Assembly (NCBI GenBank): GCA_029220445.1
Contig: GCA_029220445.1_3666.1
DNA length: 64,000 nucleotides
Direction: 5' to 3' (one strand)
Source of the DNA: a phage
Numbering within the stretch: the first letter of the stretch is position 1; each line of letters starts with the position of its first letter. The position numbers were made by a program, and so were the translations under genes. Below the pieces are notes generated by a model. That model had not been told where the DNA came from and ran no database searches. It worked only from the letters and a program-made list of their open reading frames with translations. Shown here piece by piece: positions 4,643 to 55,473 of this stretch.

Positions 4643-4843
4643 ATGAGCAACAATATCCGCGTTATTAACTTCAAAAAAGAAGAAAAAATTGCCGTGCTGA
4701 TTGACGGTCAAGAAATCTTCAAGGGCGACTATGAAGATCATCAAACGGCGATTAGTATCACTCGCGTGATTGGTTACCATAATTTTTACCCCCAAGGCGC
4801 TGAGGCAGCGGTTAAACGAATCAAAGAGATTGTAGGCCTGTAA
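4643..4843 (+). CDS. hypothetical early protein (66 aa)
   Basis: ORF with AGGAG RBS. Confidence 0.55.
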   Translation: MSNNIRVINFKKEEKIAVLIDGQEIFKGDYEDHQTAISITRVIGYHNFYPQGAEAAVKRIKEIVGL

Positions 4844-5807: not shown

Positions 5808-6092
5808 ATGGCTATTGTTACCGCTGGCGATGTAGTAGAAATGGAAGCAAAATACTTAAAAGCGGGTATGCATATCCTACGGAATGATCAAGAGTTATTA
5901 TTAACGATGGTTGACTATAATCCCGGCCAGGATTATCCAAGCATCGACTACTTTTTTGAGTATGTTGATGAAGAGTTAAAAGAGGATGAGGCCTATTGCG
6001 GTGAGTTCTGCAACTTCTTTTGTCCTGATGAGGTTGTAAAGGTTATTTATCAACCTGGCGTAGCTTTCCCGCTGCACGCTATCAATAAATAA
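5808..6092 (+). CDS. hypothetical early protein (94 aa)
   Basis: ORF with AGGAG RBS. Confidence 0.6.
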   Translation: MAIVTAGDVVEMEAKYLKAGMHILRNDQELLLTMVDYNPGQDYPSIDYFFEYVDEELKEDEAYCGEFCNFFCPDEVVKVIYQPGVAFPLHAINK

Positions 6093-6670: not shown

Positions 6671-6727
6671 GTATTTCGTAGGGGAGACAAGCGCCCCATT
6701 AAACGCAACAGGAAGAGGATAAACACC

Positions 6728-6973
6728 ATGAAAAGCAATAAAGGTTATAACGGTTACAAAAACAAAACTCATTGGAATGTAAGCCTTTGGATTAATAACG
6801 ATGAGTCATTGTACCGGTTGGCCCAAGGCTTTATTAACGCTAATGCTAATCGTAATGATGCGGCGCGGGATATGATGCTTTTTCTGGAGCTAACCGGACA
6901 AGATAAGACCCCGGACGGCTTCAAGTACAGCACTACGGCGATCCGTTCCGCGATGGTTGGAATGAAACACTAA
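6728..6973 (+). CDS. hypothetical early protein (81 aa)
   Basis: ORF with GGAAGAGGA RBS. Confidence 0.55.
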   Translation: MKSNKGYNGYKNKTHWNVSLWINNDESLYRLAQGFINANANRNDAARDMMLFLELTGQDKTPDGFKYSTTAIRSAMVGMKH

Positions 6974-9298: not shown

Positions 9299-9346
9299 CT
9301 TTTTGAAGGGAAGTTGTAAGAAAATTAACTAAGAGGTAAAAACACC

Positions 9347-9766
9347 ATGAACATTAAATCTAATAATCCGGCATATAGCTTTGATAACGCTTTTTGTCAC
9401 GGTCCGGCGGCGAAAGGATTCGAAATCGATGGTAAACTAATTATTGTCAATGTTGACGGGGAAGAGGTTGCAGTATATCCGGTAGCAGACGTTAAAAGCC
9501 GTTTACAATGCCGCATTGATGTTACCGCCTATCAGCTTGATCCGGTCCGCATAGTTGCCCTGGTCCTGGAGGAAGAAATTAAAGCCATGCATCATAGCAA
9601 CAAGTTTATCGGTGACGCTCAGGATAATATGAAGGTATGCCGCTATAAAGTTAATGAAGTGCTTAAAGAATATGGATTTAAGGATCTGATGATCAAACGT
9701 GATGAAAAATTCCGCTACCGTAACGACCTGGCAAATCGGATTTTTGAAATATACGAATCATTATAA
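9347..9766 (+). CDS. hypothetical early protein (139 aa)
   Basis: ORF with AGAGG RBS; last gene of plus-strand early block. Confidence 0.6.
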   Translation: MNIKSNNPAYSFDNAFCHGPAAKGFEIDGKLIIVNVDGEEVAVYPVADVKSRLQCRIDVTAYQLDPVRIVALVLEEEIKAMHHSNKFIGDAQDNMKVCRYKVNEVLKEYGFKDLMIKRDEKFRYRNDLANRIFEIYESL

Positions 9767-9784
9767 TTTTTTAACTGAATTATC

Positions 9785-9809
9785 AAGGGGCTTAGGCCCC
9801 TTTCTTTTT
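9785..9809 (+). terminator. intrinsic terminator (aggggc-tta-gcccct + T-run)
   Basis: Hairpin plus TTCTTTTTG immediately after ORF 9347-9766. Confidence 0.7.
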
Positions 9810-10399
9810 GTCTGCTCTTCCCCCTACCATAAACGGCCCTACCTGGCAAGTGGAATAATTGACGAGCCATCAATCCCACACACTGTACAAATATACATGT
9901 AAAATAGCTATTGCATAACCTTTCATTGTGTGGTAGCAGGGCTATTTTTACCCGTTTTCCCTTCCAAAATTGCACGTAATGCCGCTATTGCACAAATTTT
10001 AACCTGATGCAGATCTTCAATATCTTGTCAACAAATAAAAATTCTTATAAGTCATACACTTACACCAACACAAAAGCGTTTTCTACGTGAAAAATCGAGT
10101 ATAACTATAGCCGCCAGATCTCAGAATTTACGTACGCTCACCATTCTATAGCCTGCTAAGTATTTATTCCAACCATAGAATAATGGAATAGTCAATACCT
10201 GCATAAAATAATTATTCGTTTAAATTGCATAACATAAATCAGCCAGGGTGTCAACATTTTTCGTAAACAGTCCGAAATTATCGCTGTGAATTATCATAAA
10301 CAGAGAAATCTTTAGTCGTCTAATGTTTACTGTACGTTACTATACTGACTGGAATCATTAGATGACTAAGAGAAAGATAAGAAATAATTAACAATACAA

Positions 10400-11160
10400 T
10401 TATTTTATCTGTAACAATAAGGCAACTATGCAAACGAATGGCATGGCGCGACGGAGTCGCGACATAATATAAAAGCAGTAACCATCACCCCCGTGATAGT
10501 TTGTCTGCAAACTATTAATCAGATCATAGTTGCCTTGTATTTAGTTAATCATGACATAACAAGCAAGGCAACTATAGATCTGCTAATAGTTGCCCTGCTT
10601 TTATATTATGTCACCTATTGTAAACCAGTTAATTGTCAGCTTGTTGGCTGTTAGCTTGTCAATTGTTATCTTGTTAATTGTTTTCATGCAAACGAATGGC
10701 ATGGCTTATCATCTCTGTGTAAACAGTCAATCATGTAAATGATAAGTATGTTAACAGTTATCCATGTAAACTATTAGACATGTAAACTATTGAGAATGTA
10801 AACAGTAAAGGGCGTGAACAGTAAGCGAGGGAATAGTAATAGCGTGAATAGTGACAGCGTAAACAGTCAGGCATGTCAATTAAGTCTAAAGTGTCAAAGG
10901 TGTCATATTATGTCACCAGTATGCCCAGTATGTCAGACAAGTTTTTCTCCTCTTTGTCAAGTGCTGCATGAAAAATTTACAAGCTGGTATGGTAGCATTT
11001 TTGCGGTCCTGTTTACATTCAGTAATGTATGTATAATCCTTGTTGTGTGGGCGCTTAGACGTCTAGACGGTTGGAAGTCCACAGGTCAATATCTAATCTA
11101 TCGGCTGCTAACTATATCCCACACAAATAGTAAGAAATATAATTGTTATGTGTGTAAACA
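10400..11160. repeat. iteron/palindrome array in gene-free region (GGCAACTAT x4 in inverted pairs; 20-bp direct repeat ATGCAAACGAATGGCATGGC x2; ~10 copies of GTAAACAGT/ATGTAAACTATT-type iterons)
   Basis: Direct and inverted repeats read from sequence; no credible ORF; candidate replication origin or regulator-binding array. Confidence 0.6.
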
Positions 11161-11459
11161 GTAACTCATGTTATCAATCCCTGTATGTATCGCCAGTGGT
11201 GCGCATAATGGGTATTATGTTAAATTGCCCGTAATGATAATGGTTCTCACAATGATATGTATTCTCATTCCCCCACACAAAATAGATTGCAAATGTTGTG
11301 CCACTGTGTGAACGGCCTCACCTATTAATTTGCCTCACTGCCTCGATATTTGAGAATTGTTATAAGAATGAGAATGATTCCCATTTCGTCCGCCTGGCAG
11401 CACTCCTGTAGGACAAGCACAAAATCGTGGCATAGCTGGACCTGTTCAGATATTTCTGG

Positions 11460-11700
11460 CTGGCTCTTCAGGTCTGTGTGGGAAAAGCCAACCCCCTCCG
11501 GCGGCGGGGAGGGTGTCAATTAAAAAATTTACGGGGTATATGAAGCGCTCTTCAGGTAAGGCATGTACTATGGGATGAAACCCTCTTCAGGCAATGATAT
11601 TTGTGGGTGTGATATTTGCTGGAAAGCCAGATATGACGGGACTCCCGGCGGGGCAGGGGTAGTACAGACAGGGAAAATATGGGGATGTAGTTGGGTGAAT
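11460..11700. repeat. GC-rich palindromes (ccctccggcggcggggaggg; cccggcggggcagggg) with recurring CTCTTCAGG motif
   Basis: Motif at about 11463, 11547, 11583 and again near 11996; region lacks ORFs. Confidence 0.45.
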
Positions 11701-12355
11701 TGATCGGGCAGGTAGAGTATGGAATATGTTACAAGTATGTTAAATATGGAGGGTGAATATCTGCAGGATTTGTGTGTAAAATCAAAGACTTAAGTAGTGT
11801 TGTGGTATTTTCTATAAATAATTCAAGTTTAATAGGTAATATTTGTCTCTATCCACTTTGTGTGGTAAACAAATTCAAATGAGATTGGTTTACAAGTGTA
11901 TACATAATATACAAATTAAAGATACAAGAAACCCCCCCTCCCCCTTCGGCTACCATTCACCTTTTCCTCTGACTGGTACTTAAACACTTATTCAGACTCT
12001 TCAGGTTATCACCCATATACCATATGGCAGTGACTGGTGTCCTCCGGCCCCTCTTTCGTCACCCGTCCGCTTCGCCATGCTAATGCCATAGCCAAATGTT
12101 CGGTTGTTCACCCTGTTCACTCAGGTGTATCTCCATACCCCTTCAAACCGAAGAGAACAGAAAACCCGAATTACTCGGTAAAAGAAAAGAGAAGAACTTA
12201 ATTTTATCAGGATAGGCAAGAATGTCAAGGCATGACTGCTCACTAAACAAGCAAACAGTCATGTGTGGGAGGTAAGTGATTGTGGTGGTAGGAAATTTAG
12301 TTGAAAGATGTGTTATAGGTGCTTCCAGCACTTTAGCCTGGCAGCTAATTGTGTG

Positions 12356-12571
12356 TCAGTCCAGCGGTTCATCCTCTACTTCACTGAAATCAATGTTCAT
12401 GGTCTCTTCCCAACCATCGATCTCAGCACAAGAGTGGAGTTCTTTAGGGTTTACTCCCAAAGCCTCAGCAACAGAGTCTATATTTAACACCTCTGGCAGG
12501 TATGATTCATCGAATTCAAGGTAAATCAGGCCACGAGTGTTGTCAACTCCACCAAATATTTCTATCTTCAT
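12356..12571 (-). CDS. small acidic protein (72 aa), member of MK[IV][KE]-start acidic family
   Basis: ATG 12571 with AGGAGA RBS (track start 12637 is upstream extension); acidic C-terminus. Confidence 0.45.
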   Translation of the reverse strand: MKIEIFGGVDNTRGLIYLEFDESYLPEVLNIDSVAEALGVNPKELHSCAEIDGWEETMNIDFSEVEDEPLD

Positions 12572-12691
12572 GAAATCTCCTCTGGAAATGAGAGTGTGAA
12601 CAGGGTTTATACGTTCCAATGCACTGGAATTATGCACGTTTGCCTCTTCAGACCATGCTTTAGCATGAGGAACCTGTGTGGGCTCGGTGCT

Positions 12692-13105
12692 TCATAGTCT
12701 ACCACCCCTGAACTCTTCGTGCTCAGGCATAATAGAGAACCAGATATCTACGATGTCTTCCCACGTTAGGTCATCAGCCTCAGGATCTACCTGGAGCGAA
12801 GATGGAGAATCTTCAGAATCGAAGTTTTCCTCTTTCACTGGCTCAGCCAAGGGACATATAGTCACTCCTTTGGATGTCTCTTCAAATGCATGTGTGTTTA
12901 TCATGTTCCACCCGTGAGTATTCCGGCAACAGCCACTATGGACGTAATGATCATCAGGATCACCACCAAAACCTCTGACAATGTTTTCATTGTGTGTCCC
13001 ATATTCTCCAAACGATGTGTGGATACTATCACTGGAGCGGAAATGTGTCAACAGAAACGTCGCGAGGGTTTGGTTAAAATCCGAGCGTATGGTGATTTGG
13101 GTCAA
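12692..13105 (-). CDS. hypothetical protein, start uncertain (up to 137 aa)
   Basis: ORF with acidic C-terminal half; no clear RBS; may start at internal Met (12904). Confidence 0.3.
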   Translation of the reverse strand: MTQITIRSDFNQTLATFLLTHFRSSDSIHTSFGEYGTHNENIVRGFGGDPDDHYVHSGCCRNTHGWNMINTHAFEETSKGVTICPLAEPVKEENFDSEDSPSSLQVDPEADDLTWEDIVDIWFSIMPEHEEFRGGRL

Positions 13106-39377: not shown

Positions 39378-40158
39378 ACCTGGTCTCCAAAATGTATTGT
39401 AGTTCTTTCTTACCTATACTCTTCATTCCAGCAGTCTTACCTGCTTCTTCTTGAAAAGAAGAATAGCATTCAGCAAACACTCTGTCAACACCGTTAACTA
39501 AAGATTTTATGAAATATGTTGATTCTTCAGATTTTGGGTCATCATCCCCCAATACTTTTCCAGCATTATACCCAACACGTCTTACACAGAAGTCGTAGTC
39601 ATCTGGTGTGCTAAAAGAAAATAACTTATTCTCTCCAATCTCTACAGGATCCCTATTGCACGCCTTTTTCTCCCAAATTTGGAAAACACATGGCACGTCA
39701 TAAGGTTTGCCATTAAGTAAAAACGAATTCTTAGGGCACCTTTCGCTGTAGACAAGGTGCATCGACATGTCCAGTTTGTTTGCAAAAAATATTTTTTCAA
39801 ATGTCCGTGGCAAGATGAAGGCTATAGCCCCTCCAAGCTCTAGCAATGATGCACAATGGTTAAAGAATTTGCAAGCTAAGGATGAATTCTTGCCAAATGG
39901 TGGGTTACCTATGAAGACATCTGCCTTGGGATGCACCTCCAAGAAGTTTGCCTGAATGCACGGTGTTGGTCCTTCAAATTCAGGATCTGGTACTAAATCG
40001 TACGACAGTATCTCTGAAAATAGTTTTGAAAAAGAACCCCTTCCAGCAGAAGGCTCAACGTATGCACAATTCCCATACTTATCTTTTACTTTACCAACAA
40101 GATATTCTGCATACTCAGGGTTTGTGTAATATTTGTCGTTGGACTCTTTCTTACTCAA
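39340..40158 (-). CDS. DNA N6-adenine methyltransferase (272 aa)
   Basis: SAM-binding motif VEPSAGRGSF and catalytic FIGNPPFGK. Confidence 0.7.
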   Translation of the reverse strand: MSKKESNDKYYTNPEYAEYLVGKVKDKYGNCAYVEPSAGRGSFSKLFSEILSYDLVPDPEFEGPTPCIQANFLEVHPKADVFIGNPPFGKNSSLACKFFNHCASLLELGGAIAFILPRTFEKIFFANKLDMSMHLVYSERCPKNSFLLNGKPYDVPCVFQIWEKKACNRDPVEIGENKLFSFSTPDDYDFCVRRVGYNAGKVLGDDDPKSEESTYFIKSLVNGVDRVFAECYSSFQEEAGKTAGMKSIGKKELQYILETRYDQKHRLDQRTY

Positions 40159-54660: not shown

Positions 54661-54735
54661 GCCCTGTTAGCTTAGTGGATAAAGCAGCGGCCTTCTAAGC
54701 CGTTGACACTGGTTCGAGTCCAGTACGGGGTGCCA
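54661..54735 (+). tRNA. tRNA-Arg (anticodon UCU)
   Basis: Manual cloverleaf: acceptor gccctgt/acggggt, anticodon loop cttctaa, T-loop ttcgagt, CCA encoded. Confidence 0.8.
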
Positions 54736-54739
54736 AATT

Positions 54740-54826
54740 GGGGAGTTATCCCGTAGAGGTAGCGGTGTAGACTGTAAATCTATTGTCATTGCGACTCGGG
54801 TGGTTCGACTCCACCACTCCCCACCA
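54740..54826 (+). tRNA. tRNA-Tyr (anticodon GUA), type II with long variable arm
   Basis: Acceptor ggggagt/actcccc, anticodon loop ctgtaaa, T-arm ggtgg-ttcgact-ccacc, CCA encoded. Confidence 0.7.
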
Positions 54827-54940
54827 AATTTATATTTTTAGATGCATAAATAATACAGATAATGGCATTGATATTTATCGTCGTTTATACTAGTCACTAA
54901 CTGCTCGAAAATCAGTGTCATTATCAGTATAATTTATAAA

Positions 54941-55031
54941 GGAGGGTAGGGAGCAATGGTGCTCAAGCGGTCTTGAAAACCGTCCCGTTGAGGATGACTC
55001 GATGATGGTTCGATTCCATTACTCTCCGCCA
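54941..55031 (+). tRNA. tRNA-Ser (anticodon UGA), type II with long variable arm
   Basis: Acceptor ggagggt/actctcc, anticodon loop cttgaaa, T-loop ttcgatt, CCA encoded; position 8 is A (unusual). Confidence 0.65.
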
Positions 55032-55129
55032 CATTGTTGACCTTGTAATTAAGCGAAAGCCGGAAGCAGAACCGGATTATCAAATGTTACAGTCGTCATC
55101 GCCGACTAGCAACATGGTCAACATACTGA

Positions 55130-55226
55130 GCTAGGTAAGCCCTTTGGCAAGGGCGAGGATTTTTAATCCTGAAAATAGACGAGGTAGTCGTTGAATACAT
55201 AGGTGGTTCGATTCCATCACCTAGCA
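55130..55226 (+). tRNA. atypical tRNA-like element (97 nt): normal acceptor, D and T arms, 4-bp anticodon stem with loop tttttaa (UUU, Lys-like) and ~30-nt extra arm; may be a pseudogene
   Basis: Acceptor gctaggt/acctagc perfect; D arm gccc-tttggcaa-gggc; T arm ggtgg-ttcgatt-ccatc; no CCA. Confidence 0.35.
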
Positions 55227-55233
55227 CCTTTTT

Positions 55234-55309
55234 GCTGATGTAGCACAATCGGTAGTGCAATTGATTTGTAATCAATAGGTTGTAGGTTCAAGTCCTGCCA
55301 TCAGCACCA
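55234..55309 (+). tRNA. tRNA-Thr (anticodon UGU)
   Basis: Acceptor gctgatg/catcagc, D stem gcac/gtgc, anticodon arm attga-tttgtaa-tcaat, CCA encoded. Confidence 0.8.
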
Positions 55310-55310
55310 A

Positions 55311-55385
55311 GGCCCTGTAGCTGGAAGGTTCAAGCAAGCGACTCATAATCGCCAGACGGTGGTTCAATTCCACCCAGGGCCACCA
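55311..55385 (+). tRNA. tRNA-Met (anticodon CAU; elongator, or Ile2 if lysidine-modified)
   Basis: Acceptor ggccctg/cagggcc with G1-C72, anticodon loop ctcataa, T arm ggtgg-ttcaatt-ccacc, CCA encoded. Confidence 0.7.
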
Positions 55386-55396
55386 AATAGTAAATA

Positions 55397-55473
55397 CTCC
55401 GCGTAGCTCAGCTTGGTAGAGCGCCTGATTTGGGATCAGGAGGTCGAGTGTTCGAATCACTCCGTGGAGACCA
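55397..55473 (+). tRNA. tRNA-Pro (anticodon UGG)
   Basis: Acceptor ctccgcg/cgtggag (C1-G72 as in tRNA-Pro), anticodon arm cctga-tttggga-tcagg, T-loop ttcgaat, CCA encoded. Confidence 0.8.

Follow-up and report, generated by a model that had tools for sequence, protein, structure and literature searches.

The gene-free zone at positions 9810-12355 of the 64,000-nucleotide phage DNA stretch analyzed here (contig GCA_029220445.1_3666.1 of the NCBI GenBank assembly GCA_029220445.1; "the window" denotes this whole stretch) is very probably the physical-end region of a Vequintavirus genome, i.e., the concatemer junction or packaging region, with a direct terminal repeat (DTR) of 459 bp at its center. 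As judged from its sequence, the 64-kb stretch is genome of an rV5-like Escherichia coli phage of the genus Vequintavirus: a megablast search with 9810-12355 returned 122 phage records at 90-99% identity, all of them rV5-like or Vequintavirus. An earlier note on this DNA had offered three candidates for the zone, namely an origin of replication, a genome-end or packaging region and a cluster of small RNAs. The second is borne out by the mapping of the 459-bp DTR into the zone and by repeat arrays that abut its boundaries, while the other two found no support.

The DTR was located through deposited genomes of close relatives. At each end of the EdH4 record stands the same exact repeat of 459 bp, which maps to 10936-11394 of the window, and the record of Gotham annotates a repeat_region at 1-459 and 136567-137025, the two copies being identical to each other and 93.7% identical to the same interval. 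Deposited vequintavirus repeats are 93-95% identical to it, with identical boundaries. Six records break at two points, query positions 1127 and 1585, which correspond to window positions 10936 and 11394 and lie 459 bp apart: EdH4 and ECP2303 end at the first, Pr121LW begins there with the window's GACAAGTTTTT, and HdK5, bov10K2, and bov22_2 begin at the second. In an alignment of 13 genomes, composed of ten GenBank records, two IMG/VR contigs and the window, the length of the DTR is 457-460 bp and the junctions are invariant in all 13, reading RTGTCA/GACAAGTT on the left and CGTCCGCC/WGGCAGC on the right (the slash marks the boundary); the letters in the window are TGTCA/GACAAG and CGTCCGCC/TGGCAG. 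An exact-pattern scan of IMG/VR for the right boundary returned only two loci. Terminal repeats of 458/459 bp and one specific packaging start were published for the vequintaviruses EdH4, HdK5, and Gotham (PMC6563267, PMC7471380), and twofold read coverage over the repeat together with read-start pile-ups at its boundaries was reported for Gotham and for KPP-1, a phage of the genus Mydovirus. The close relatives display features expected of the short-DTR class, namely identical sequence at both ends and fixed, sequence-specific and non-permuted boundaries, and in the window short-repeat arrays adjoin the inner sides. The window contains the DTR once, as expected of an assembly that collapses both ends; in the orientation of the window, virion DNA would start at 10936, continue rightward round the genome and end at 11394.

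The statement that 9810-12355 holds no credible open reading frame (ORF) was confirmed. The internal ORFs are broken in most of the 13 genomes or are intact only where the DNA barely varies, and none of the ten matches any PHROG family, compared with five of five flanking ORFs that served as positive control (E 1e-46 to 2e-95). Comparison with related phages likewise revealed no intact genes in the zone, and the small ORFs called there differ between annotators. Since about 120 independent records carry the zone, the objection that it might be an assembly artefact fails. Its counterpart in rV5 is 104014-106572, between ORF163 and ORF164, an interval without annotation in the rV5 record. The paper describing rV5 in 2013 draws this interval as a grey "non-coding" box without ORFs; its authors, to whom the genome ends were unknown, expected bidirectional terminators between genes 163 and 164 and found none (PMC3606486).

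Variation within the zone is distributed unevenly around the DTR. Conservation is high over 9850-10550, over the DTR and over 11550-12355; it collapses at 10550-10935 and again in two short patches immediately beyond the right end of the DTR, and the collapse on the left stops exactly at the DTR boundary. A first impression that the zone is more conserved than the genes was discarded, as it arose from three divergent ORF164 alleles and pairwise identity is comparable to that of the flanks. The coordinates of the features are collected in Table 1.

Table 1. Features of the terminal region and its flanks in window coordinates (dG, folding free energy; a dot in the strand column, no strand given).
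Feature	Position	Strand	Basis
ORF164 homologue, last plus-strand gene	9347-9766	+	phrog_12277, function unknown
Intrinsic terminator (predicted) ending the plus-strand operon after the ORF164 homologue	9785-9803	+	terminator scan; dG -12.9, z -2.7
AT-rich non-coding spacer, right-end side of the unique sequence	9810-10420	.	conservation 0.92-0.97, no conserved ORF
Terminator-like hairpin, left half of the symmetric arrangement, then CUGCUUUUAUAUUAU	10508-10461	-	dG -16.6, z -4.1
Terminator-like hairpin, stem GGCAACTAT-N10-ATAGTTGCC, then CUGCUUUUAUAUUAU tail	10561-10612	+	dG -19, z -4.3
Five TGTCA units, mostly 9-10 bp apart, the last ending at the left DTR boundary	10874-10935	+	
Direct terminal repeat (DTR), 459 bp	10936-11394	.	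at both virion DNA ends in relatives; single copy in this assembly
Palindromic box AATGAKAATNATTCYCAT, two neighbouring copies within the DTR	11233-11268	.	
Palindromic box, third copy, 10 bp inward of the right DTR boundary	11367-11385	.	
Variable zone just outside the right boundary, GCACTCCWGT-like units, duplicated in some relatives	11395-11440	+	alignment
Strongly G-skewed stretch, many G-tracts, GATATTTG repeats at 11596 and 11611	11470-11780	+	GC skew up to +0.48
Conserved C7TC5 run, minus strand G5AG7	11932-11944	+	sequence, alignment
Nearly invariant 270-bp block including the fourth CTCTTCAGG (11997)	11940-12210	.	non-coding
Sigma-70 promoter-like site TTGACA-16-TGnTAAAAT, directed toward the DTR	12228-12201	-	best in scan
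Gene of the rV5 ORF163 family (71 aa), first on the minus strand, bounding the gene-free zone on the right	12356-12571	-	phrog_12108, E 2.9e-51

On the left side of the DTR the DNA is AT-rich (36% GC over 9810-10935 vs 42.5% for the window) and contains the symmetric arrangement that had been noticed before. It consists of an 18-nt inverted repeat, GACATAATATAAAAGCAG, the arms of which (10461-10478 and 10595-10612) are 100% complementary, and of four GGCAACTAT half-sites at 10421(+), 10526(-), 10567(+), and 10586(-), a motif with five copies in the window compared with 0.51 expected. This arrangement is a back-to-back pair of terminator-like hairpins, in which the inverted repeat is the U-rich tail common to both and two of the half-sites build the plus-strand stem. 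None of 200 shuffles was as stable as the leftward hairpin, and a terminator scan finds the same site; at the site homologous to the rightward hairpin the record of Murica annotates a terminator (4754-4789 of the retrieved stretch). A stable GC-containing hairpin with a U-run directly behind it, the hallmark of an intrinsic terminator, is present in both and in the site following the ORF164 homologue, which is annotated as a terminator in the records of Murica, EdH4, and Schickermooser. Most simply, the hairpin pair and this terminator would together act as a bidirectional stop for transcription entering the terminal region.

Around and behind this module follow the repeats that the earlier note had listed, all of which are real, lie no more than a few bases from the coordinates given there and are more frequent than chance would predict. 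The 20-bp direct repeat ATGCAAACGAATGGCATGGC at 10428-10447 and 10686-10705 (+) is identical at 20 of 20 positions. TTGT-rich tandem repeats with periods of 7 and 15 occupy 10617-10684 (+) and are present, replaced or absent depending on the relative. About ten (T)GTAAACAGT-like iterons are arranged at 10718-10867 (+) with a spacing of 15-16 bp, eight of them within two mismatches and two degenerate; single iteron-like sites lie inside the spacer at 10263(+) and 10322(-), and all five exact GTAAACAGT copies of the 64 kb fall in the zone. Between genomes the number of iteron-like copies ranges from 0 to 10, with 0-2 in FV3, FFH2, V18, PDX, and phita32. The TGTCA units vary in number as well, the last one being invariant; a sixth unit lies within the DTR at 10955, close to its edge, and this grouping of six TGTCA over 82 bp is the only one of its kind in the 64 kb. 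In FV3 a clean deletion of 238 bp (10448-10685) between both ATGCAAACGAATGGCATGGC copies has removed the whole terminator-pair module, rV5 and phita32 carry a 33-bp insertion at 10557 inside it, and V18 is without most of the arrays. Depending on the genome, 97 to 330 bp separate the inverted-repeat arm from the DTR. A k-mer enrichment scan retrieved TGTGTGGG/CCCACACA and ATATTATGT as further recurrent motifs. A recombination breakpoint was observed at 10613-10920: 9810-10613 is 100% identical to "Campylobacter phage C5" and 93.9% identical to WalterGehring, 11397-12355 is 99.8% identical to WalterGehring, and for PDX the identity is 93% to the left and 99% to the right. Nineteen of the 122 matching records (GenBank MG0656xx) are titled "Campylobacter phage" with Campylobacter jejuni as host and are 92-99% identical to E. 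coli rV5-like phages; these are probably mislabelled or contaminant genomes.

The DTR itself contains three distinct palindromic boxes. The AATGAKAATNATTCYCAT box has six matches in the window compared with 0.42 expected, and four of the six fall in the DTR if both strands of the palindromic third box are counted. These boxes resemble the 19-bp Fur box consensus, GATAATGATAATCATTATC, at 13-14 of 19 positions. The match is too unspecific to identify them as Fur sites, 53 sites of the window reaching 13/19 compared with approximately 23 in simulations; across the terminal palindromic boxes overall the resemblance is 13-16/19 and is best in KPP-1 (a 16/19 site), and binding of host Fur at phage ends would be speculative.

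Outside the right boundary lie the CTCTTCAGG boxes. The four copies reported for the zone were recovered at 11464, 11548, 11583, and 11997, with seven copies in the window compared with 0.49 expected. The first three (11464-11591, +) sit 70-190 bp outside the DTR, and the first carries a GGCTGG prefix that recurs in two other genera. Relatives have a fifth, intergenic copy near 12644, which in the window contains one mismatch. A role as a genome-wide regulatory motif was dismissed for the three remaining CTCTTCAGG copies of the window, all of which fall within minus-strand genes and encode Pro-Glu-Glu there. The GC-rich palindromes postulated for this part are the least secure of the listed elements, the hairpins at 11488-11520 and 11636-11668 being no more stable than shuffled controls (z -1.0, -0.04, +0.74). 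For GATATTTG, three of the five copies in the window are found at 11345-11618. Farther to the right, sampled full-length matches to the block 11940-12210 among ~118 records are 98.2-100% identical. The ORF overlapping it (12037-12201) has no PHROG match, and folding of either strand (11925-12196) is not unusual (z -1.66 and -0.38). The promoter-like site behind this block is composed of TTGACA at 12228-12223, a 16-nt spacer and TGnTAAAAT at 12206-12201, which amounts to 11 of 12 matches plus an extended -10 element, and both hexamers are conserved in the 13 genomes.

Several of these motifs recur in genera in which the surrounding DNA has diverged beyond recognition; a blastn search with both flanks returned matches only among Vequintavirus records. 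The 514-bp DTR of KPP-1, called T7-type by PhageTerm (PMC9862379), sits in a convergent low-coding gap like that of the window. In its vicinity CTCTTCAGG is enriched with five matches at ≤1 mismatch compared with 0.76 expected, the counterpart of the GGCTGG-prefixed box reads GGCTGACACTTCAGGTC, and a perfect 21-nt inverted repeat lies ~300-500 bp from the DTR. A collinear alignment with KPP-1 was abandoned, being ambiguous in either orientation. Schickermooser (Phapecoctavirus) has a DTR of 329 bp (PMC6563267). Its last gene before the right DTR is a 90%-identical ORF164 homologue with its terminator, and its DTR starts with ATGTTG/AGCAAGTT compared with ATGTCA/GACAAGTT in the window; the genes after the left repeat read inward, unlike those of the window. 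In A73 (Septuagintavirus) CGTGCC/TGGCAGCAG is followed 95 nt on by GGCTGG..CCTCTTCAGG; the counterpart in the window is CCGCC/TGGCAGCAC, followed 70 nt on by CTGGCTGGCTCTTCAGG, with GATATTTGTGGG common to both, so that window and A73 have in common CC/TGGCAGCA and then, 70-95 nt on, GGCTGG..CTCTTCAGG. A73 also contains, within 5848-6013 and 6700-6860 of the retrieved stretch, a direct repeat of ~55 bp, which may straddle its left DTR boundary, and, across the repeat from there, an array of its own that is built of CTCTGTGGNCAA-like units. From one genus to another the terminal arrays are therefore unlike both in sequence and in the side they occupy.

Like the window, Schickermooser, KPP-1, and A73 possess a non-coding zone with a short DTR, and the terminal regions across these genera have in common the DTR-start motif, the palindromic boxes, TGGCAGCA, GATATTTG, and CTCTTCAGG. 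The AATGAKAATNATTCYCAT palindromic box is enriched in or next to the DTR in all three genera with a located DTR, represented by the window, KPP-1, and Schickermooser. Apart from this, the other genera differ from the window in that general nucleotide similarity is absent and the array sequences are different. From these comparisons, the motifs that persist in diverged surroundings would be the best candidates for protein-recognition sites.

A known counterpart of this architecture is the genome of phage T7, the ends of which were checked directly. At the left end of T7 the terminal repeat (1-160) is followed by approximately 12 CCTAAAG units with a spacing of 13 bp (175-341), and A0, an E. coli promoter directed leftward, is located at 224. 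The right end has phiOR (39229) and gene 19.5, then similar units at ~39620-39740 and finally the repeat. T7 and the window thus have in common a short, exact and non-coding DTR, arrays of short repeats on its inner sides, a promoter (in the window a promoter-like site) that lies in the unique DNA of the left end and is directed outward across the repeat, and an operon that reads into the right repeat. They differ in several respects: the zone has no sequence similarity to T7, the gene-free flanks of 1.1 and 1.0 kb are much longer than in T7, and the genes on both sides read toward the ends, unlike the early genes of T7, which read inward from the left end. Moreover, the window phage is a 137-kb myovirus without an RNA polymerase of its own, so that its promoter is of the sigma-70 type, unlike in T7. 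A second point of comparison is given by the R sites in cosB of phage lambda and the hexamers in pac of phage P1, where terminase recognition sites consist of repeated short boxes next to the cut. The TGTCA units resemble them as several copies of a short motif with approximately helical spacing that adjoin a sequence-specific cut, binding by a small terminase being putative here; the cut in the window phage yields a DTR, unlike the cohesive ends or headful series produced in lambda and P1.

The mechanism proposed here starts from what was observed: the DTR has been located and is constant among genomes, the zone around it does not code for protein, the arrays vary, and hairpins resembling terminators are present. 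By analogy with T7-type phages with short DTRs, the terminase may recognize cis-acting sites around the junction and cut at TGTCA/GACAAG and CGTCCGCC/TGGCAG. Repair synthesis would then duplicate the 459 bp between the cuts, so that each packaged genome would receive the repeat at both ends. The likeliest recognition sites, for the small terminase or for accessory factors, would be the TGTCA units, the palindromic boxes of the DTR and the outside TGGCAGCA/GATATTTG/CTCTTCAGG boxes. The iteron and TTGT arrays may represent accessory repeats prone to expansion and slippage, like SRL and SRR of T7. The hairpins at 10461-10612 and the terminator at 9785 are predicted to halt transcription from either side, and the promoter at 12228-12201 could send a transcript through the junction, as A0 and phiOR do in T7.

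Several observations weigh against this interpretation of the zone as a packaging junction. The end positions for this phage are taken from relatives that are 92-96% identical, and recognition of the boxes by the terminase is something we infer by analogy, the boxes being candidate sites. A paper from 2026 inferred headful packaging with partial permutation for a Vequintavirus from a phage cocktail by use of PhageTerm (PMC13211470); the fixed ends that several isolate genomes have in common carry more weight. Pairwise identity of the non-coding blocks (0.88-0.98) is similar to, and not higher than, that of the neighbouring genes (0.93-0.99), and conservation alone is weak evidence, with the exception of 11940-12210. 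As a class, promoter-like sites show no enrichment here (14 vs 10.6 expected). Finally, FV3 and V18 lack most of the iteron and TTGT arrays and of the terminator module, for which reason arrays and symmetric module are considered dispensable.

The variability of the arrays also bears on the rival idea that the zone is or contains an origin of replication, in which either an initiator binds the GTAAACAGT iterons next to AT-rich DNA or the G-rich transcript (G5AG7) of the promoter at 12228 primes synthesis via an R-loop. We consider this unlikely, even though the left side combines an iteron array with 36% GC, as do the iteron origins of lambda (ori) and of plasmids (oriV) with their tandem ~10-bp sites in regular spacing beside AT-rich DNA, and even though the conserved promoter has a nearly invariant block behind it and would give a transcript with a G-run. 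Unlike in such origins, the copy number of the array is unconstrained: it varies from 0-2 (FV3, FFH2, V18, PDX, phita32) to 10 among near-identical viable phages, in which the sequence is replaced or parts of it are deleted. No enrichment was seen for DnaA or IHF sites, the one DnaA-like and the one IHF-like match corresponding to what the genome density predicts, and an initiator gene is not found adjacent, the flanking genes encoding small proteins of unknown function. The strong local strand skew, which is in line with an origin, changes at the zone also in rV5, where it was ascribed to the direction of transcription (PMC3606486); in the window as well the change coincides with the switch in transcription direction. 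The origin proposed by the earlier note is therefore without support.

The promoter and the conserved block could alternatively serve a non-coding RNA, e.g., a leftward transcript from 12228-12201 through the CCUGAAGAG boxes with a regulatory role unrelated to packaging. The promoter is near-consensus and conserved, the nearly invariant block downstream lacks a coding signal, and the leftward terminator at 10508-10461 could end such a transcript. Nevertheless, a permissive Rfam search of 9300-12900 on both strands gave no match at E<=1, the conserved block folds in an ordinary way (see above), variation is too small for a covariation test, and the candidate terminators nearer to the promoter are weak. 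A regulatory RNA of this kind is quite improbable, and the same Rfam and folding results leave the suggested cluster of small RNAs without support; a single non-coding transcript from the one good promoter-like site is possible. A hammerhead core suggested by the reverse-strand CUGAAGAG was rejected, as no Rfam ribozyme model matched.

Packaging and transcription might also be coupled at the junction. In this combined proposal, 11940-12210 together with the promoter and G5AG7 would form a transcription-dependent cis element, the RNA or R-loop of which is needed for duplication of the DTR or for the start of replication, and the CTCTTCAGG/GATATTTG/TGGCAGCA boxes of three to four genera would be the terminase recognition code of an rV5/phAPEC8 supergroup; taken jointly, we regard this as a long shot. 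That the zone consists of decayed genes or neutral spacer, with repeats as functionless slippage products, is hardly credible: the copy number of the arrays does drift freely, parts are deleted in FV3 and V18 and annotators disagree on small ORFs, but phage protein families gave no match to any internal ORF, all 13 genomes have the same boundaries and boxes, identity over 11940-12210 is 98-100% in the sampled matches, and several motifs recur in genera without general DNA similarity.

The terminal-repeat junction of a linear phage genome, as which the zone is best explained, is a known kind of feature and not a new kind of system. The DTR was already present in GenBank and in two papers, which give its length only, and the "non-coding" box in a third (PMC3606486). 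The literature searched contained no account linking the DTR to this box, nor a description of hypervariable arrays ending at the cut site, of the terminator pair, of the boxes in different genera or of the invariant block with its promoter; searches on this region, its origin or transcriptomes of the subfamily retrieved nothing specific. Vequintaviruses are in wide use for therapy and biocontrol, and the starting point of most deposited genomes is arbitrary. The junctions provide an orientation rule, according to which genomes should begin at GACAAGTT and finish at CGTCCGCC, and the conserved boxes are candidates for cis-acting packaging signals that could be used when such phages are rebooted or engineered. 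Moreover, the zone represents a natural hotspot of repeat expansion and recombination.

Both flanking operons read toward the genome ends. For the first minus-strand gene an ORF of 93 aa starting from GTG is listed (12356-12637); because the phrog_12108 profile spans residues 23-93 only and relatives annotate 71 aa, the true start is probably the ATG at 12571. The protein of the ORF164 family at the other flank is ~90% identical in Phapecoctavirus, which belongs to a different subfamily, although the adjoining non-coding DNA is unrelated. Tentative labels for members of this family are "DNA translocase" in one record and "Rel homology domain" in Murica. GATC is scarce in 9810-12355, with five sites compared with ~15 expected from the density in the window. 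Elsewhere in the window, a cluster of seven tRNAs (54661-55473) includes, at 55130-55228, a tRNA of 99 nt to which ARAGORN assigns a four-base anticodon (atcc) and an undetermined type.

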